Positions 22,422 to 53,445 of a DNA stretch of 64,000 nt are shown piece after piece. The position numbers and the translations under genes are program-made. Each line of letters opens with the position of its first letter. Positions within the stretch are counted from its first letter, which is position 1. The notes under the pieces are model-generated. The model saw only the letters and a program-made list of their open reading frames with translations. It had not been told where the DNA came from and did not search any database. The stretch comes from Candidatus Parcubacteria bacterium (GTDB taxonomy: Bacteria; Patescibacteriota; Patescibacteriia; Patescibacteriales; BM507): NCBI GenBank assembly GCA_002869265.1, contig PKTH01000040.1, positions 69,120 to 133,119 on the forward strand. Reading direction: 5' to 3'.

Positions 22422-23972
22422 TTATTTTGAAAAGCTGTCTTTTTTTAAGAAGCTATTATAAAAAACCAATATTAGTATCGTTAAATAATAAAGAATTATA
22501 AGAGACTGATTTACTACTTCTATCTCCATGCTCAATATATCAATCCCCGCAAAAAAATTAACAGCGTGAAGTAAAGAAAAAATAAGAAAGCTGAGTGGAG
22601 CAAAAATAAATTGGGAAAATATTGGGAAAATAAAAGTTAGGAAATATGACAAAATTGCTCCAACCAAAATAATCGGCAAAGACCATAATACTAGCACATT
22701 CATTAGTGGAAAAGAAAAAGAAACAATCCCAAAGTTATTTACAATGAGTGGGAATATAAAAATTTGAGCTGATATTGAAACTAGAAAAACATCTCTTATA
22801 TATTTTAATATTCTTTTTTCTGGAGTTTTTAAAAAGCTATCAAGTCTAGGATAAAAATATACAATTCCCAAAAGAGCCAAAAATGAATATATGAAGCCCG
22901 TATCATATCTAATGCTTAGGGGGTTTGCCAAAACCATAAAAAATCCTGCAATTATCACAGATTGTTTTATATTATTTATTCTTCCAATCTTAAAAAGATA
23001 CAAAATTATTAAGCCCATTAAGCTGGCCCTCAATGCTGATGCTGGAAAGCCAATTAATATATTATAGAAAAGCAAGCTGATACATATTTGATAAAATATA
23101 AGCTTTCTTGAAAAGCCCATAGTATAAAACATATACCCTAAAAGAAAAATAATAATTCCAATATGCATTCCGGAGATAGCAATTATATGACTTAGGCCTG
23201 TTTTTGAAAAATTTAGCTTTAAATCATCGCTAAGCATTTTCTTATCACCTGTCAACATTGCATTTATGATAGACGCCCCTGGCTCGCTAATATTATCATT
23301 TATGGTTTTTTTAAAATTATTTTTTAAAGAATATGCCGTTTCTAAAAACAGAAATCTTTATTTTTTCTGGTTATTATTTATTTCTGGATAATAACATAAG
23401 AAATTAATTTTTTTCATCTCTAGGTATTTATCATATCTAAAGTCTTCTATAGGCTCGGGTCTTTGTAACTCACACTCCGGGTTTATAAAATCACCGTATG
23501 AAAATTTTGGATAAAGTCGAGCAAAAACTAATACATTTTTCTTAATATCTTGCCCGTTAATTCGATAAGTCTCTATTATAAACTGTTGATTCTTTATTCC
23601 TGTTTCAGGATTGTTCAATATTCTGGCCTCAATGCTGTGTTTTGAGGCCTCTAGGATCCTAATATCAGCATTTGGGTCTGTGTCTATAAATACTACGAAA
23701 CGAAATATTCCCAAAAAGAAAAAAAGTATTATTAAAAAAACTAGTCTTATATAATAGTGTTTATAAAAAATAATAACAAATATGAAGCCAAGAAATACGC
23801 CTAAAATTATTCTGAATACTTCTCCAGCTAAAAATTCTTCGAAATAGCTAGCTAGCAATATTGCAAATACGAAGTCTAACAAGAGCAGGTAAAAAACCCT
23901 TGATCTTGTTTTAATAAGATTAGTTATTTTTTTTCTAAACAAATTATTATCTAACATAAAGTAAAAGAGCAA
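22422..23972 (-). pseudogene. comEC: ComEC/Rec2 DNA-uptake channel (DUF4131 + competence domain) interrupted by one in-frame TAA; no MBL domain
   Basis: ORF-track pieces 23358..23972 and 22422..23258 are in the same frame. The 99 nt between them have no other stop and read RFLFLETAYSLKNNFKKTINDNISEPGASIINA. The downstream piece carries SHIIAISGMHIG. The only break is TAA at 23358..23360. The likely true start is the ATG at 23957. Confidence 0.6.
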
Positions 23973-24000
23973 TCCTGTGGACTGCTCTTGTTAAACAATT

Positions 24001-24045
24001 TTAAGAGGGACTACCACGAACTGGGTAAATACGATTATTTTTCAT
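24001..24045 (-). CDS. Micro-ORF B (14 aa, MKNNRIYPVRGSPS), speculative
   Basis: ATG preceded by AAGGAG (24059..24054) with a 7-nt spacer. Followed by a hairpin (AAGAGCA...TGCTCTT) just before comEC. Confidence 0.25.
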   Translation of the reverse strand: MKNNRIYPVRGSPS

Positions 24046-24074
24046 CGTAAAACTCCTTGGGGATCGTCGCTTGA

Positions 24075-24185
24075 TTACAGGATGACCCGGGCGCCCTTGT
24101 CGCGCTTACCGGCATTCGCCTCGACATTTGCCATGACCTTGAAAGAATTCGGGGTGCCGCGAGCGGCCGCTGTAAGCATGTTCAT
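24075..24185 (-). CDS. Micro-ORF A (36 aa, MNMLTAAARGTPNSFKVMANVEANAGKRDKGARVIL) in a GC-rich islet, speculative
   Basis: ATG preceded by GAGGAG (24199..24194) with an 8-nt spacer. Third codon positions are mostly G/C, unlike neighbouring genes. Confidence 0.35.
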   Translation of the reverse strand: MNMLTAAARGTPNSFKVMANVEANAGKRDKGARVIL

Positions 24186-24225
24186 GGTAAAAACTCCTCT
24201 CTCTTCTATAAAAGAAGGAACAAGA

Positions 24226-24246
24226 CCCTCCTGACAACCAGGAAGG
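24226..24246 (-). terminator. Probable prfB terminator
   Basis: Minus-strand CCTTCCTG-GTTGT-CAGGAGGG hairpin followed by T-rich TCTTGTTCCTTCTTT. Confidence 0.5.
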
Positions 24247-24292
24247 TAATTATTAATATTATATTATAAATAGATTAATAATGCAATAAAAA

Positions 24293-25387
24293 CTATTCCT
24301 TTAGACTTCTTAAATAGCTTGTCATAAAGTCTTCTAAGTTGCCGTCTAAAACTCCATCAATGTCTTGAGTCTCTTCGTTTGTTCTATGATCTTTGACCAT
24401 CTTATAGGGCTGCATAACATAAGACCTAATCTGCTTACCCCATTCTGCTTTTTTTATATCGCCCCTCAATTCAGACTCTTCCTCAGCTCTCTCTTCTTCT
24501 CTTTTTTGTAACAGCTTAGCTTGCAAAACCTTCAAGGCTCTTTCTCTGTTCTGGTGCTGAGATCTTTCAGTTTGACAAGTAACTGTTATGTTGGTTGGTA
24601 TATGCACAATTCGAATAGCGGAGTCAGTTGTGTTAACACTCTGCCCTCCGGGCCCAGAAGACCTAAATACATCTATTCGCAAATCTGCCTCATTGATTTC
24701 TAGGTTTTCATCATCTGGTAGCTCGGGCAGCACTTCAACTAGTGCAAATGAGGTGTGTCTCATTGCTTCAGCATCGAATGGTGAAATCCTAACCAATCTA
24801 TGAACACCGGCTTCGCTTTTTAAATATGCGAATGACCAACGTCCTGAAATATGAATAGAGGAATTCTTTATTCCTGCTTCATTCCCCTCATTTCTATCGA
24901 TTATTTCAGCCTTCCACCCCATTTTATCTGCAAAGCGAAGATACATTCTTTCTAAGATTTGTGCCCAGTCCTGAGCATCAACGCCACCAGTCCCAGCATG
25001 AATAGTCACTATTGCATTATTTTTATCATACTTTCCAGAAAATAGAACATAAAATTCTAATTTTTCATATTTTGCCCTTAGTTCTTTGTATTTACTATTT
25101 ACTTCACGGTCCAAAGAACTATCTTCTTCTTTTTCAGCTACTGCAACCAGCTCTTCTAAATCACGAACCTCTTTTAAAACTGTTCGCCAATCAGAATTCT
25201 CTGAATCAAGATCTTCTATTCTTTTAGAAATTTCGATCGCCTTTTGCTGGTTATCCCAAAATTTTGGGGAACTAGCTAGATTACGAAGTTCTACCACCTC
25301 CGCCTCTTGTCTTTCAATATCAAGAAGCTTAATTGTCTTCATTATCTCCTCTCTAAGATCTTCGATTTTTTTAAGTAAATTTTCCAT
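24293..25387 (-). CDS. prfB: Peptide chain release factor 2 (contiguous ORF, no programmed frameshift)
   Basis: SPF tripeptide (VRISPFD) and GGQ (SSGPGGQSVNTTDSA). The 364-aa length is uninterrupted from MENLLKKIEDL. Confidence 0.92.
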   Translation of the reverse strand: MENLLKKIEDLREEIMKTIKLLDIERQEAEVVELRNLASSPKFWDNQQKAIEISKRIEDLDSENSDWRTVLKEVRDLEELVAVAEKEEDSSLDREVNSKYKELRAKYEKLEFYVLFSGKYDKNNAIVTIHAGTGGVDAQDWAQILERMYLRFADKMGWKAEIIDRNEGNEAGIKNSSIHISGRWSFAYLKSEAGVHRLVRISPFDAEAMRHTSFALVEVLPELPDDENLEINEADLRIDVFRSSGPGGQSVNTTDSAIRIVHIPTNITVTCQTERSQHQNRERALKVLQAKLLQKREEERAEEESELRGDIKKAEWGKQIRSYVMQPYKMVKDHRTNEETQDIDGVLDGNLEDFMTSYLRSLKE

Positions 25388-41626: not shown

Positions 41627-44600
41627 CTATTTAAGTTTTAGATAGGAAATACCTCCTATTAAATCTATGTCTATATTACTAGACGGCTTTTTCAATATCA
41701 GCTTATATCGACTATCTTCATTTAAATTTTTAACGATTGTCCTGTGTTCACCACCCACTGTTATAATCTCTTCCCTGCAAATATTATCATCAGATGAATC
41801 ACATAAAAGAATTTCTATTTCTCTGGACTGAGCCTCAGCACTACTAACAAAAGTATGTGAAATCTTTTTAAACAAAAATTTCATAATACTTCCAAAAAGA
41901 TTGACTCGGTTCCCTTCCATTTCCTCCAATGCTTCAAAGGCGCCAGCGATCTCCCCATCATCAAGATAGTAAAGACTTTCTTCTGCTGGAACATCAGAAG
42001 AATCCCAGGCTAGAACCAAGTTATTTTCTGTGTTTATGTCAGCTGCAGTCAAAACCGGAGTATCAGAAACCTCTCCCGAATAAGGACTCTCATTGCCAGA
42101 AGAATCAATCGCTGTAACCGCAAAGAAGTAAGGAGTACCATTTGCTAGATCGGTAATAACCACTCCTGTAGAGTTGCCAACGTTTTGCGAGCTTGCATAA
42201 CAGTCTGGAGGAGTAGAACCAACGCAACCAGATCCCGCTTTCCAATAAATCCTGTAAGACGAAGCGTCTGTAATTTCCGTCCACTCTATCTCAATCTGAG
42301 CATTTCCCACAGTCGTAGTGCTAATAGAAGGAGCAAACGGGGCCAAAGTGTCAACTGGAGTAGCGCTAATTTCAGGAGAAGGATCGCTCTCGGCTCCACT
42401 AACATATACTGCTGTTACTGCAATATAATAAATAGTTCCATTACTAAGGCCGGTAAGACTAGTATTAAAGACAGCAGGCCCAACTGAGACACTATCGCTA
42501 TAATTGCCACTTGCTGTTCCGTAATGTACTAAGAATTCTTGGACAGTTTCGCCTGGGTCTACGGTAAAGGCTGACCAAGAAACATTGATTGTCCCGCCCT
42601 GGGTTGGTGCAGTGGCATTTACTGTAATGCTTGAAAGATCAGGTGTTTCTTCTCTAAAGAAATAATATTCTTTAAATAAATCTTGATCTGCGTCTCTACC
42701 TCGAATAACTGACTCATTCAGTATTGGAGGTAGGTCATCGTAAGTATCTTCGGTCCCCTGATCACGACAATAATAAAATTCATAATTAGCATTTATACAT
42801 GAGTTGGTAGCTCCGGCGCCTTCCGGATAAATAGTACAGTTGTTTTCTTGGTCTGACCAAGGGGCCCACTGACCACTAGCATCGAATGGTGGCCAAGGAT
42901 TATTACAAAGGAATAAATATAAATCAGCATCACCAACTTTGGTATCAGAACCAATGGTTCCAGTAATATTTGCTGTGGCTTGAATCACGGTATGCCCGTC
43001 GGTGGCAGTACTTTGAGCTCTAATTAGTCTATTGTCACCATCGCTTGCAAAAACAGAAGGGCTGACAAAGTCTGCAATCCCAATATTTGAACTACTCCAA
43101 CCCCATGTCCATGAATAAACCCCTGGAACAGGGACTAAGGTTTGTCCACTAATAGTTTTTGCTTTCGCGGTATATCTTTTATCTGAATCATTAACTGTAT
43201 CAAAACTATTTGCCAAAGGATTTGTATCATCCTCTACCAAACTATTCTCTGTAGTTTGTATTAAATAAGAAGCTGGCACAACATTAATATAATCAACCAG
43301 ACAATAACCTTGATTTGGTCCTTGGTCGGGTAGAGTTACAAATGACCAAATATAAGCGTTTTCATATTCTTTAGCATTAAAAGTAGCTAATGGAGTTGTT
43401 CCTGTTGTTCCCATACTTAGACTTACTTCGTCCAAGACTCCTTGGGAGCTATCATCCCCCAGGTCTCTATCACCCAAAATAATCACATAATATCGAATAT
43501 CTCCATCAAGCGGCTTGTTTGGAGAGAATGTTAAAACACCCTGACCTGAAACATCATTATAACCACTAGTCTTTCCTGTTACAGCGCAATAATTATTTGT
43601 TCCCCCTATTGGGAAAAAAGCTTTAGCTTCGTCTATGAAAAATTTATTTATTTTACCTTTTAGAACATTTGAGACTTGAGTAAAAGTATTCTCTTCTCCT
43701 AAAATCTCTCTCTCTTCCTGACTAAGATACTGGGTCCCCACGGGACAAGGATCATTGCCATAATCTCCAAGAACTATAACGTTCCCGCTAAAAGTGGATA
43801 CATTCATTTCTTTATTAAAAGTCGCTTCTATCATTACGTTTCTACAGGCTTTATCACTGTCCGTAACTGGGCTTGGCTCATCTGGAGGGATGGTGCTCAC
43901 AACATAAGGCCTTGGTTGGCAGCAAGTATCATCGCCACAGGCATTCAGATCTGTATTACCGCACTCTGTATCACTCTCACAGCCGCAATATAGTCCTCTG
44001 CCCTCACCGCTGCAAGGACCTTTATCTTCTTGGCAAGTCAGAGTTCCTCCATCAGCAGTCGGCAATGTTTGAGGTATGGTTGGGTCACAACAGCAAGTAC
44101 CACAACTATCCAGAGGGTCTCCTGTAGGGGGGTCGGCTGAAAGACAGTCATAGCCAGCTCCACAATTAAACGAAGGGTCACAAACAAAATTGGAAGTTAA
44201 ACCAACAAATAATTCTTGAATACACAGAGCTCCGGGATAGGTCTTTTCTAGCTGACAAGTACATGAACCAGGGTCGCAAAACTGGCCGGTCGAACAAGCA
44301 GTGGTCCCAACCGTACATGAAGCTCCATCAACACAAGGATCTCCAACATCGGTTGGAGGTGATGGTGGGGGGGCATCAACACAGGTTCCCGTATCACTTG
44401 GCAGGGCGGGGTTAATCTGACAAATCTTTCCAGTGGTACCCGAACAATTACAAGCTAGGTCACTTGCCGCCTGATCTACAACTCCAGCATTTTCTACACG
44501 ACAACCAGTACATTGACCAAAATTCGCTTGAACAGTTGAGCTAGCTGTATCACCACAGCCGCCAGGAGAACAAGTTAGTCCCATACAACAGTCATTGGCT

Positions 44601-47269
44601 CCCACTTCACAACAACACTCACAAGTCGCAGAGCCTAGACAAAAGCTACCATCACAAGCAGAATCCCCATTACAAACATCACCAGCCTTAGCACAAGCGC
44701 CACCCTCACAAGTAAAACCACTGTCACAAATATCACAAGTCTGAGCTAGAGGTACAAATAAACTACCTACTGTACACTTGCCGTTAGTTGCATCTTGATA
44801 TGTGCCAGCTGGACAAGAGCCTGGAACCGTAATCTGCCAGGCATTTACTGTGCCATCGACTGGATGTGTTACCGTAGCACACGTTGCAGTATAGCCAGCA
44901 TAAACACTGGTCGAAGGTTCACTACAAGTATCCTGAACTGCTCCACCTGGAGTGGCTATACATTTATTATAAGTTGGATTATTTGTATCATCATCATATT
45001 CACAATTTCCTGGGCCACAACCAGCTAAGCTTTCACAATAATTATCTCCACAAAAACCAGTTATAGGATTTGGATTGGTCTGGCACTCACCAGGAGAGTT
45101 TGGACAATCTACATTATCAGCCAGACAAGCATTTCCTCCTGACCAGCCAGAACAAGTTTCAGTTGGGTCAGTGGGGGTTTCAGTGGTCGTCCCCTCTGAA
45201 GTGAAAGACCATCCATAACCAGTATCGCTAATTGGGGCTCCGTCATCACAAGAACCTATGTCACGACAAATACCACTCCAATAAGTAGAACTAGGGCAAC
45301 ATTCTTCCAAGACAACATCACACGGGAAGTTTGGACTTGTTGTTGCGATACTCGCATCACAATACCCAACAGTAAAAAGGACTGGGTTGGAACTAGTAGA
45401 AGTGAAAACCTCGACTGGCCCAGTTTGTGCTCCAACCGGAACATATGTTTCTATAAATTGATTCTCCCAGGTATCAAAAGTAGTGGCTGAAATTGCATTA
45501 TGAAAATTTACTGTATTGGTAGTATTGGTAAAGTTGTCACCGAAAATATCAACATCAAGACCAGTTGGACCATTTCGTGGAGACATCTTACAGATTCCTG
45601 GACCAGGAGAGTCTGTATTTACAAAATAATCATATGGCTGACTTGTGAAATTGCTTGAATTTGTAACAGTTACTGTATAGTCCCCCAAATTACCATCCCC
45701 TCCTATTAGGATTGGAACCTGCACCAAAATAATATTCTTACTCCACCAAGAATCTTGACATTCCAAAGGAAAGCTAAGTCCGTCAGCTGTATAAACACTA
45801 CCTGGGTTAGTAGTACCAGGACCAGCAGTAAATAAAACTTCAGCCGGTGCCGCATATGAATTTCCAAAACCCGAACCCGTGATAGTTATATACTGACCGG
45901 GAGGCCCTGGTTCAGGAGAAATATCCTCAATAAAAGGCACATTTGTATTGTCTATAAAAACATTAAAACCAACAGCATTTGAAGAACTACCATTTACACT
46001 CACATAAACCGTATTATTTCCGCCGCCAACATTTGGAACACCAGCCACCACAGAAGAATTCGTCCAAGAATTAATATTCACAGCACTGATAAAGCTACTT
46101 GGATTACCAAAATTTACTTCTTGAGTGGCTCCTGGAGGGCCCAAAAATGAGACACCCTGCAATGTAAAAGGGTCTTCAAAGGAACCAGTAATCGGACTAA
46201 TCCCACAAACACCTGGTCTTTTTTCTATATTTACCAAAAAATCATCAATAGGTGCTCCACGAGAATTATCTGTTACATCTTCTGCGGAATCAGCTTGTCT
46301 AATTATTTTAATTGGCCCATCGGAAACACCGCTTGGGACCACAATAATCACTTGTGTTTCAGTCCAAGTGTCTGTACAATTAGCATTTACTGTACTTGGA
46401 GATATCCCGTTTCTATCATCTGCATCACCAAAAATATCTCCATCGCCATTCACATCCTGACCTCCAAACACTATCGTCCCAGCTGTCGCTCCAAAGAATC
46501 TTCCACCGATAGTTATTATATCCCCCTCTGCTCCATTGGGTGTTCCTAAATAATCAACCGGACTTATCCAGTCAATAATAGGTGCTCCTTCACAAGTACA
46601 GCCCGTCGGGTCACAAACTAAACCAGCCATACACATAGAGTCATCTGGGGAAACACAGGCCGGACCAGTAGTGTCAAAATCACAATCTGCACCAGGGCCT
46701 CCCAAGAGCTGACAAGTGCAAGAACTGGCCTCACAATACTCAACCCCTGTCACACACATCGAATCAGTTGGGTCACAAATCGGAGTCAAAGTATTTCCAT
46801 CACAAGGAGTGCCACTAGGAGAACAGCCTGCGCCAACACAATCTGGAGGCGGAGGCAAGCAACCTGCTCCCACACAAGGGGTTGAAGTCGTACCAGAAGT
46901 TGAAGTAGTTGCACTCAAAAGTCTACTTAATATAAAGCTTGCTATTGCAAAAGATGAAAGAATAATCAAAAGTCCAATAATAGCAGAAACTAATATCTTT
47001 TTAGCTTTATCTATTTTAGAAGGGTCTCCAGCGCTTGTTGTCCATAAAAAACCGGCGTACAAAATTAAAACCAAAGCGATTATTCCTAGAAAGCCAAGAA
47101 ATATCCGAATAACATTGGCGGCCACTACCCGAGGATCAGCATCCCCAAGGCCAATAACCGACACCTCATTTAACCCCGTATCGATTTGCGCTAAAGCAAA
47201 ATTACCTATCAGAAAAACAAAAACCAGACTGAAAGAAAACGCTATTAATTTTTTGATTTTTTTATTCAT
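41627..47269 (-). CDS. Giant (1880 aa) Cys-rich surface protein with N-terminal VirB2/TrbC-like pilin hairpin, IPT/TIG-like and FN3 domains
   Basis: Signal peptide ..NFALAQ, then two hydrophobic helices joined by a TSAGDPSKIDKAKK loop, then an S/T linker. IPT/TIG-like blocks include GDIITIGGRFFG and YITITGSGFG. Two FN3-like modules lie near the C-terminus (INVSWSAF..YYIAVTAVY; IEIEWTEI..YFFAVTAID). Confidence 0.7.
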   Translation of the reverse strand: MNKKIKKLIAFSFSLVFVFLIGNFALAQIDTGLNEVSVIGLGDADPRVVAANVIRIFLGFLGIIALVLILYAGFLWTTSAGDPSKIDKAKKILVSAIIGLLIILSSFAIASFILSRLLSATTSTSGTTSTPCVGAGCLPPPPDCVGAGCSPSGTPCDGNTLTPICDPTDSMCVTGVEYCEASSCTCQLLGGPGADCDFDTTGPACVSPDDSMCMAGLVCDPTGCTCEGAPIIDWISPVDYLGTPNGAEGDIITIGGRFFGATAGTIVFGGQDVNGDGDIFGDADDRNGISPSTVNANCTDTWTETQVIIVVPSGVSDGPIKIIRQADSAEDVTDNSRGAPIDDFLVNIEKRPGVCGISPITGSFEDPFTLQGVSFLGPPGATQEVNFGNPSSFISAVNINSWTNSSVVAGVPNVGGGNNTVYVSVNGSSSNAVGFNVFIDNTNVPFIEDISPEPGPPGQYITITGSGFGNSYAAPAEVLFTAGPGTTNPGSVYTADGLSFPLECQDSWWSKNIILVQVPILIGGDGNLGDYTVTVTNSSNFTSQPYDYFVNTDSPGPGICKMSPRNGPTGLDVDIFGDNFTNTTNTVNFHNAISATTFDTWENQFIETYVPVGAQTGPVEVFTSTSSNPVLFTVGYCDASIATTSPNFPCDVVLEECCPSSTYWSGICRDIGSCDDGAPISDTGYGWSFTSEGTTTETPTDPTETCSGWSGGNACLADNVDCPNSPGECQTNPNPITGFCGDNYCESLAGCGPGNCEYDDDTNNPTYNKCIATPGGAVQDTCSEPSTSVYAGYTATCATVTHPVDGTVNAWQITVPGSCPAGTYQDATNGKCTVGSLFVPLAQTCDICDSGFTCEGGACAKAGDVCNGDSACDGSFCLGSATCECCCEVGANDCCMGLTCSPGGCGDTASSTVQANFGQCTGCRVENAGVVDQAASDLACNCSGTTGKICQINPALPSDTGTCVDAPPPSPPTDVGDPCVDGASCTVGTTACSTGQFCDPGSCTCQLEKTYPGALCIQELFVGLTSNFVCDPSFNCGAGYDCLSADPPTGDPLDSCGTCCCDPTIPQTLPTADGGTLTCQEDKGPCSGEGRGLYCGCESDTECGNTDLNACGDDTCCQPRPYVVSTIPPDEPSPVTDSDKACRNVMIEATFNKEMNVSTFSGNVIVLGDYGNDPCPVGTQYLSQEEREILGEENTFTQVSNVLKGKINKFFIDEAKAFFPIGGTNNYCAVTGKTSGYNDVSGQGVLTFSPNKPLDGDIRYYVIILGDRDLGDDSSQGVLDEVSLSMGTTGTTPLATFNAKEYENAYIWSFVTLPDQGPNQGYCLVDYINVVPASYLIQTTENSLVEDDTNPLANSFDTVNDSDKRYTAKAKTISGQTLVPVPGVYSWTWGWSSSNIGIADFVSPSVFASDGDNRLIRAQSTATDGHTVIQATANITGTIGSDTKVGDADLYLFLCNNPWPPFDASGQWAPWSDQENNCTIYPEGAGATNSCINANYEFYYCRDQGTEDTYDDLPPILNESVIRGRDADQDLFKEYYFFREETPDLSSITVNATAPTQGGTINVSWSAFTVDPGETVQEFLVHYGTASGNYSDSVSVGPAVFNTSLTGLSNGTIYYIAVTAVYVSGAESDPSPEISATPVDTLAPFAPSISTTTVGNAQIEIEWTEITDASSYRIYWKAGSGCVGSTPPDCYASSQNVGNSTGVVITDLANGTPYFFAVTAIDSSGNESPYSGEVSDTPVLTAADINTENNLVLAWDSSDVPAEESLYYLDDGEIAGAFEALEEMEGNRVNLFGSIMKFLFKKISHTFVSSAEAQSREIEILLCDSSDDNICREEIITVGGEHRTIVKNLNEDSRYKLILKKPSSNIDIDLIGGISYLKLK

Positions 47270-53010: not shown

Positions 53011-53094
53011 ACAAAAGCTACGGGAAAACCGTAGCTCTTTTATTATTCATGAGAAACAACACTACCTCCTGACTCGGCCAAGGCAAGAAATGCT

Positions 53095-53298
53095 CTAGAC
53101 ACAGCAACCCCCCAAGCCTGGGGCATTTCTACTCGCCCCTCCAGATGTACATATGCGCACAGAACGGACCGGAACTTCACCTTCAGGAACTACCGCTACA
53201 TACCAATCCCCGTTTCTTCCCATAGTTATGACTAACTCATGTCTATGTGGCATATCACGATCGTCCGTTAAATATCTTACCTCTGTTATTTCTGACAT
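53095..53298 (-). CDS. Hypothetical protein (67 aa), ends ..GLGGCCV
   Basis: The internal ATG at 53298 is preceded by AAAAGGAGAAGAAA. The longer ORF-track start lacks an SD. Confidence 0.4.
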   Translation of the reverse strand: MSEITEVRYLTDDRDMPHRHELVITMGRNGDWYVAVVPEGEVPVRSVRICTSGGASRNAPGLGGCCV

Positions 53299-53383
53299 TT
53301 TCTTCTCCTTTTTGGTTAATTTACAACAATTTTTAATGGTCCATTTTTTTGTGACATTAACATAGATATTCCTTACTGGCAAC

Positions 53384-53445
53384 AAAAAAAGAATTACGAA
53401 ATGTTGTGTAATTCTTTTTTATCTAAATTGAGGATCAACTATTCT
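53384..53445. repeat. 62-bp direct repeat, copy A (stop codon + spacer + terminator hairpin)
   Basis: AAAAAAAGAATTACGAAATGTTGTGTAATTCTTTTTTATCTAAATTGAGGATCAACTATTCT. Differs at 2 positions from 55131..55192. Confidence 0.85.

Follow-up and report, generated by a model that had tools for sequence, protein, structure and literature searches.

The spacer between prfB and comEC in a 64,000-nt stretch of a Candidatus Parcubacteria bacterium contig (the whole stretch that was analysed, referred to as the window) carries a short islet that is GC-rich within an AT-rich genome, raising the question of whether the islet is a captured fragment of foreign DNA, a pair of small regulatory or precursor peptides, or an unrecognised RNA. 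These three candidates had been proposed in a first-pass annotation of the sequence. The analysis indicates that the feature is real and locally striking and that it most probably represents the scar of an insertion that copied a start signal in an indel-prone spacer, rather than a novel RNA or peptide system. On the minus strand, prfB (24293-25387) is followed by a 335-bp spacer and then by comEC (23957-22422). The first-pass annotation had named the flanking genes correctly, as judged from PCRF, RF-1 and the SPF motif in prfB and DUF4131 and Competence in comEC. It had also described two minus-strand micro-ORFs led by Shine-Dalgarno (SD) sequences, which are confirmed at 24185-24075 (36 aa) and 24045-24001 (14 aa), and a prfB terminator and a hairpin ahead of comEC, for which terminator-like structures are present at 24247-24225 and 23989-23965. 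In minus-strand order the parts of the locus are:

24293-25387, minus strand: prfB (release factor 2, RF2), a single 364-aa ORF without a programmed frameshift, with SPF and GGQ motifs and Pfam PCRF and RF-1 domains
24247-24289, minus strand: AT-rich, promoter-like block just 3' of the prfB stop, with two overlapping TATAAT boxes (24268-24263 and 24263-24258)
24225-24247, minus strand: hairpin 1, ACCTTCCTGG-TTG-TCAGGAGGGT with a T-rich tail, terminator-like, probably the prfB terminator
24203-24217, minus strand: hairpin 2, CUUCU-UUUAU-AGAAG, adjoining the first SD on its upstream side, from MFE structures
24181-24198, minus strand: DR1, AGGAGTTTTTACCATGAA, containing an SD-like AGGAG and the ORF1 ATG (24185-24183)
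24075-24185, minus strand: ORF1, 36 codons and TAA, MNMLTAAARGTPNSFKVMANVEANAGKRDKGARVIL, starting in DR1 and reading through the GC-rich core; an orphan
24059-24180, minus strand: GC-rich core of ~122 nt, 60.7% GC, putatively inserted DNA as delimited by composition and change points
24041-24057, minus strand: DR2, AGGAGTTTTACGATGAA, containing an SD-like AGGAG and the ORF2 ATG (24045-24043)
24001-24045, minus strand: ORF2, 14 codons and TAA, MKNNRIYPVRGSPS, probably a tiny ORF older than the insertion
23961-23995, minus strand: motif TTTAACAAG (23995-23987) and intrinsic terminator, hairpin AAGAGCAGTCC-ACA-GGATTGCTCTT (23989-23965) followed by TTTT
22422-23957, minus strand: comEC, 511 codons, with DUF4131 and Competence domains

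The prfB product has hundreds of RF2 homologues. RF2 reads UGA and UAA, and prfB usually carries a programmed frameshift. Among ORFs of at least 150 aa in the window the stop codons are TAA in 35, TAG in 11 and TGA in 1, and RF2 is nevertheless encoded. Downstream of prfB, the AT-rich block is 82% identical over 44 nt (blastn) to positions 2731-2773 of the relative L086, no other part of the spacer being significantly similar to a relative. It was not called in a consensus promoter scan because its -35 element is weak. At the other end of the spacer, the terminator hairpin at 23989-23965 comprises 11 bp, has a folding energy of -15.4 kcal/mol alone and stops 7 nt short of the comEC ATG at 23957. 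Within comEC, codon 200 (23360-23358, minus strand) is an in-frame TAA in the window and GAA in the ENA and JGI contigs, representing either a strain-level nonsense polymorphism in a DNA-uptake channel gene or a sequencing error.

The islet of about 130 bp described previously is borne out by composition. The segment at 24051-24180 contains 59.2% GC, more than any other 130-bp window of the 64 kb (mean 36.1%, sd 6.9%), the value at 24060 being matched by just 0.03% of such windows. It is also the sole top window outside a gene, the remaining ones all lying within long ORFs. By a two-change-point fit the GC block spans 24053-24172, GC content being 61.7% within it and 30.9% beyond, and within the spacer the flanks of the core contain 27% and 36% GC. 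The four restriction sites claimed earlier were each located in 24086-24170: CCCGGG at 24086-24091, GGCGCC at 24090-24095, GAATTC at 24145-24150 and GCGGCCGC at 24163-24170, with NotI among these palindromes. They are dispersed across 85 bp without polylinker-like packing. Elsewhere in the window, most other GC peaks, including segments of up to 58% GC, fall in an 1880-aa ORF (41627-47269, minus strand) with Pfam fn3 and T4SS_pilin domains. The third-highest peak (53065-53194, 56%) overlaps the 3' end of a 96-aa ORF (53095-53385, minus strand) that has no Pfam match.

The core is bracketed by a direct repeat of 17/18 nt, AGGAGTTTT(T)AC(C/G)ATGAA, the copies of which (DR1 and DR2) differ at 2 of 18 positions (16 matches, 1 mismatch and 1 indel). 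When the spacer was dinucleotide-shuffled, 1.3% of the shuffles contained an equally good repeat, a result of only moderate significance (p about 0.013). The repeats bracket the GC block within a few bases, the change points lying at 24053 and 24172 and the sequence between the repeats extending from 24059 to 24180. The alignment confirms the "nearly identical initiation regions" noted for the micro-ORFs and identifies them as the two copies of the bracketing repeat, a relationship that had been missed. AGGAG sits 7-8 nt ahead of the ATG in both ORF1 and ORF2, and the two near-identical SD-ATG units lie 140 nt apart. As the units are identical in spacer and in second-codon bases, one duplication is simpler than two independent origins. 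On both strands of the window the arrangement AGGAG-N5-9-ATG occurs 21 times, twice in the islet. Most long ORFs in the window lack a Shine-Dalgarno sequence, and in many a TATAAT box lies just a few nucleotides ahead of the start codon, suggesting leaderless or SD-independent initiation in this genome; the two strong SDs of the islet are unusual against these mostly SD-less gene starts.

Codon usage in ORF1 is alien to the host and unlike that of a native gene. GC content at codon positions 1, 2 and 3 is 57%, 46% and 73%, respectively, so that the G/C-rich third positions claimed for this ORF stand, with a positional heterogeneity that is only marginal (chi-square p about 0.06, calculated by us from the counts). 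The corresponding third-position value in host ORFs is 29%, and the geometric-mean relative synonymous codon frequency is 0.19 in ORF1 as opposed to 0.31-0.40 in host genes. By our estimate, an open frame of 34 codons would arise by chance about 1 time in 3 in a sequence of 61% GC. Their SDs make translation of ORF1 and ORF2 plausible, and the strength of the ORF1 SD means that this ORF may be translated; there is no sign that ORF1 has a function under selection.

No homologue of ORF1 emerged from a word-index search of 5.8 billion proteins, and a HMMER scan of 1.84 billion representatives yielded one weak match, whose E value of 3.7e-4 is reached only by summing four near-identical FN3-like repeats. 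Searches of Pfam (five frames, E <= 10) and PDB, and tblastn against plasmids and phages, were all empty, and the ORF1 product was never called by a gene caller in any public assembly. A conserved regulatory or precursor peptide pair, as proposed earlier, is therefore not supported for ORF1, no search having returned a homologue. ORF2 and the terminator have weak counterparts in two relatives, L086 and L088. The FN3 match aligns SFRVRANTDAGEG of ORF1 with SFKVMANVEANAG of the FN3-like repeat, corresponding to the F strand and FG loop of a fibronectin type III domain, and the best local match of ORF1 in the window's own 1880-aa protein also falls on the FN3 F strand. However, neither match is significant alone (shuffle p = 0.07 against the window's FN3 protein and p = 0.11 against a small FN3 profile) and Pfam fn3 misses ORF1. 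Origin from an FN3 fragment is thus a weak lead. At the DNA level, blastn against plasmids, phages and E. coli genomes gave no match to the islet. No second copy or donor was detected by blastn or tblastx in the 64 kb examined of the 134-kb contig, a weak negative, and no second copy of the core was found among the fetched relative loci. Six-pattern scans of viral and metagenome collections, using a pseudo-protein from three frames, also gave no core match. The metagenome negatives are weak because that collection lacks the samples of both the window's JGI contig and the JGI contig of L086, both of which were missed by exact-pattern scans.

The prfB-comEC synteny is kept across the clade with a highly variable spacer. 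The nearest species-level relatives are Patescibacteria MAGs of 68% identity or less, and spacers were compared in L083-L091, L153-L155, L007, L010, L012, L017 and L018. No relative examined carries the core. It is absent from all of the closest relatives (RF2 75-81% identical), and more distant relatives have other small genes in the spacer, or none. The spacers and the identity of the accompanying RF2 are as follows:

L083-85: RF2 81%; spacer of 9 bp
L089: RF2 80%; spacer of 27 bp
L091: RF2 79%; spacer of 125 bp
L090: RF2 80%; AT-rich spacer
L087: RF2 74-75%; synteny broken, with a LeuA-like gene after prfB
L088: RF2 81%; spacer of about 450 bp with small SD-led ORFs
L086: RF2 78%; spacer of 740 bp with small SD-led ORFs
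L153: RF2 71%; split IS200-like Y1_Tnp gene in the spacer
L154 and L155: RF2 69-70%; 126-aa ORF in the spacer
L007, L010 and L017: RF2 57-62% (tblastn); DUF378 gene in the spacer

The spacer thus behaves as an indel hotspot, its length varying between 9 and 740 bp and its contents being small genes or relics unrelated to one another. The spacers of L086 and L088, to which the core shows no significant similarity, end with an SD-led ORF of 13-14 codons (MTKTYCFWPSGYF and MTKMYHYFWPSGHN), followed by TWAACAAG, a terminator and comEC. This layout is mirrored in the window by ORF2, TTTAACAAG and the terminator. The tiny ORFs of L086 (3064-3105) and L088 (2638-2682) match the Y1_Tnp-like N-terminus of L153 (3649-3740), LKNYDYFWPGFYFVT, at 22/24 nt (E = 4e-4), and because of this match they are probably relics of an IS200-like transposase gene. 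L086 and L088 group as sisters in the RF2 tree, within a set of leaderless genomes outside which the window branches. A degenerate pattern for the L086/L088 leader gave 61 matches in metagenomes, all in unrelated contexts and consistent with chance.

Between prfB and the conserved AT-rich block, L086 contains a second GC-enriched stretch (2444-2730, ~200 nt) with a terminator-like hairpin behind it. A segment of 21 nt matches the 126-aa ORF of L154/L155 in antisense with 90% identity, which suggests that the stretch is a mosaic of relics. A 40-aa ORF of L086 at a place analogous to that of ORF1 is an orphan with host-like third codon positions. Orthology between ORF1 and this ORF was considered and rejected: a MAFFT alignment was suggestive, but local alignment against shuffles was not significant. 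Derivation of the core from the DUF378 gene, the 126-aa ORF or Y1_Tnp of relatives' spacers was likewise rejected, no match being obtained for any of them.

The preferred explanation, which we consider to have about an even chance of being correct, is that foreign DNA, possibly coding at one time, was recently inserted in this lineage alone, with duplication of ~18 bp of the target that included an SD and an ATG. The ancestral spacer would have been a short leader composed of the AT-rich block, two hairpins, an SD-led tiny ORF (now ORF2) and the terminator, followed by comEC. About 120 bp of foreign DNA of 61% GC would have been inserted just upstream of the tiny ORF, the ~18 bp of target with its SD and ATGAA being duplicated in the process. 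The upstream copy of the start signal would then open into the insert and continue to the first stop, generating the chimeric 36-codon ORF1 as a by-product, while the downstream copy would remain the head of the original tiny ORF. The empty-site allele would read ...GAAGAGAG joined directly to a single AGGAGTTTTAC(C/G)ATGAAAAAT..., and the GC-richness would reflect donor composition that has not decayed, not RNA structure or a conserved peptide. The event appears recent because the DR copies differ at just 2/18 positions and the insert keeps its donor composition. The order GC3 > GC1 > GC2 in ORF1, although only marginal, gives a hint of former coding by the insert in the ORF1 frame.

The locus combines defined composition edges, a bracketing repeat, a core without excess folding, alien codons, absence of the core from relatives and a variable spacer. 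The first-pass annotation had offered foreign origin or strong constraint as explanations of the composition. Foreign origin is favoured by the sharp GC edges at the repeat, the alien codons and the absence from relatives, and constraint is disfavoured, as neither excess folding nor homologues were found. Of the three original candidates the captured fragment is the best supported, its edges coinciding with the flanking repeat. As no donor was found in any collection searched, it is by composition alone that the insert is judged foreign. We infer that the event was an insertion here and not a deletion elsewhere, no empty-site allele having been seen and the nearest relative being just 81% identical in RF2; its mechanism and the coding origin of the insert are inferred in the same manner. 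Classical transposon target-site duplications are shorter than 18 bp, and the length of the duplication counts against the insertion, as do the repeat p of about 0.013 and the codon-position p of about 0.06. In addition, real translation and function would be compatible with the strong SDs, the ATG starts and an orientation that matches that of the flanking genes. The insert and duplication could have arisen by break repair, by template switching or by illegitimate recombination with captured, possibly taken-up, DNA. Target-site duplications, filler DNA and template-switch events of the MMBIR type (PMC2621351) resemble the islet in placing a block of foreign composition between short direct repeats of host sequence through a single lineage-specific event. 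The islet differs from them in the length of its repeat (17-18 nt) and in having no inverted ends, transposase or identified donor, and such a mechanism is a conjecture here.

Alternative explanations were weighed against the same observations. The third candidate of the first-pass annotation, an unrecognised structured RNA acting as a riboswitch-like comEC leader or a small RNA gene, has precedent in that GC-rich intergenic regions of AT-rich genomes are a route to structured noncoding RNAs in the GC-IGR pipeline, for which such an island is the classic discovery signature (PMC6429828, PMC11109978). The islet resembles these candidates as a high-GC intergenic island upstream of a gene with a terminator at its end, closing the leader right before comEC. 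The 300-nt leader also folds more stably on the minus strand (z = -5.0) than on the plus strand (z = -2.8), and a 10-bp long-range helix pairing 24189-24180 with 24021-12 is present in the MFE structure. This reading was favoured initially for the z of -5 and dropped once the core alone gave a positive z. Relative to dinucleotide shuffles, z for the core (24059-24180) is +1.1 on the minus and +0.9 on the plus strand and rises to +2.5 when the flanking repeats are included, and a leader reconstructed without DR1 and the core retains a z of -4.8, as against -4.5 to -5 for the leader with the core, which places the stability signal in the flanks. Leader stability is thus supplied by three or four simple hairpins, including those at 24247-24225, 24217-24203 and 23989-23965, and not by the GC-rich part. 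At gathering thresholds Rfam detected tRNA-Pro alone in the whole window. At E <= 10 a 501-nt region returned AT-rich noise outside the core and no family, the islet itself having no match; the L086 spacer was without a match, and ARAGORN found neither tmRNA nor tRNA in the islet region. Unlike GC-IGR candidates, the core has no excess folding energy, homologues or covariation: no core homologue on which covariation could be assessed was found among plasmids, phages, E. coli, viral and metagenome patterns or relatives, and relatives with homologous spacer ends hold unrelated sequence between them. The islet would be placed in the 'unnamed' category (insufficient evidence) of the pipeline (PMC11109978), and a structured RNA is very unlikely. 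An assembly chimera or contaminant, suggested by the foreign composition and by four restriction palindromes including NotI within 85 bp, is more improbable still. The window shares an identical 421-bp region with the 134-kb ENA (ERZ794998) and JGI (3300007102) contigs, from which it is separated by 9-10 SNPs over 21 kb. The islet is therefore present in no fewer than two slightly distinct assemblies, an observation that speaks against a chimera. The direct repeat at the junctions is typical of a biological event, and searches of E. coli genomes, plasmids and phages were empty. A polylinker or vector origin was rejected, as the dispersed sites do not follow the order and spacing of polylinkers.

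The micro-ORFs might instead be genuine translated genes, encoding either a pair of small proteins or uORFs that, together with the terminator at 23989-23965, tune read-through into comEC. Consistent with this, AGGAG precedes both ATGs by 7-8 nt while most genes here have no SD, the ORFs share the strand of prfB and comEC and lie between the promoter-like AT-rich block and a terminator 7 nt before the comEC ATG, L086 and L088 share the SD-led 13-14-codon ORF, TWAACAAG and terminator before comEC, and GC3 > GC1 > GC2 holds in the ORF1 frame. In opposition, ORF1 is without a homologue among 5.8 billion proteins and its one match among 1.84 billion is weak and repeat-driven; Pfam, PDB, plasmid, phage and six-pattern searches were empty, it was never gene-called, and the 40-aa ORF of L086 in the same place is unrelated and itself an orphan. 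ORF2 resembles the leader peptides of attenuators (trp, his, pheA) in being a 14-codon ORF located 11 nt upstream of a terminator directly before comEC, but MKNNRIYPVRGSPS has no regulatory run of the same residue beyond one NN pair. Most close relatives of the window have no such leader, and the counterpart in L088 and L086 looks derived from an IS200-like transposase. A competitive antiterminator was not found: in the fold of the nascent transcript the 5' arm of the terminator has a single alternative pairing, a 7-bp helix that includes three G-U pairs, as compared with -15.4 kcal/mol for the terminator. ORF2 and the terminator could conceivably still regulate comEC. Translated genes as a whole are unlikely. 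A remnant of a mobile element or decayed gene (a MITE, an IS200/IS605-type end or a pseudogene fragment) is a rather poorer prospect. It would fit the indel hotspot, in which L153 holds a split IS200-like Y1_Tnp gene at exactly this location and L088 and L086 retain a piece of the Y1_Tnp N-terminus (LKNYDYFWPG; 22/24 nt, E = 4e-4), and the flanking direct repeats resemble a target-site duplication. However, the core differs from IS200/IS605 Y1 transposase genes in having no similarity to them at the DNA, protein or Pfam-profile level in any frame; local alignment of the L153 Y1_Tnp protein with all spacer frames gave p = 0.3-0.6. There are no terminal inverted repeats, one subterminal 9-nt repeat with 8/9 matching being about what chance provides (~1 per 122 nt by our rough estimate), no second copy occurs in the 64 kb or in the viral and metagenome collections scanned, and the core is not hairpin-rich.

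If the islet is a scar of insertion with duplication of the start signal, it is an evolutionary scar of little functional weight, and it illustrates that GC-rich islands of AT-rich genomes are not always structured RNAs. More widely, foreign DNA combined with a duplicated start signal can yield a translatable new ORF in one step, an origin that matters only given demonstrated translation or function of ORF1. It is also conceivable, and in our judgement a long shot, that foreign DNA captured behind a duplicated ribosome-binding site and start codon has already become a newborn translated gene for a 36-aa micro-protein, or a two-uORF leader modulating comEC read-through. If true, the islet would provide a snapshot of gene birth by insertion and start-signal duplication in a minimal-genome bacterium. 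The prfB-comEC spacer itself records repeated gain and loss of DNA within one clade of the Patescibacteria.
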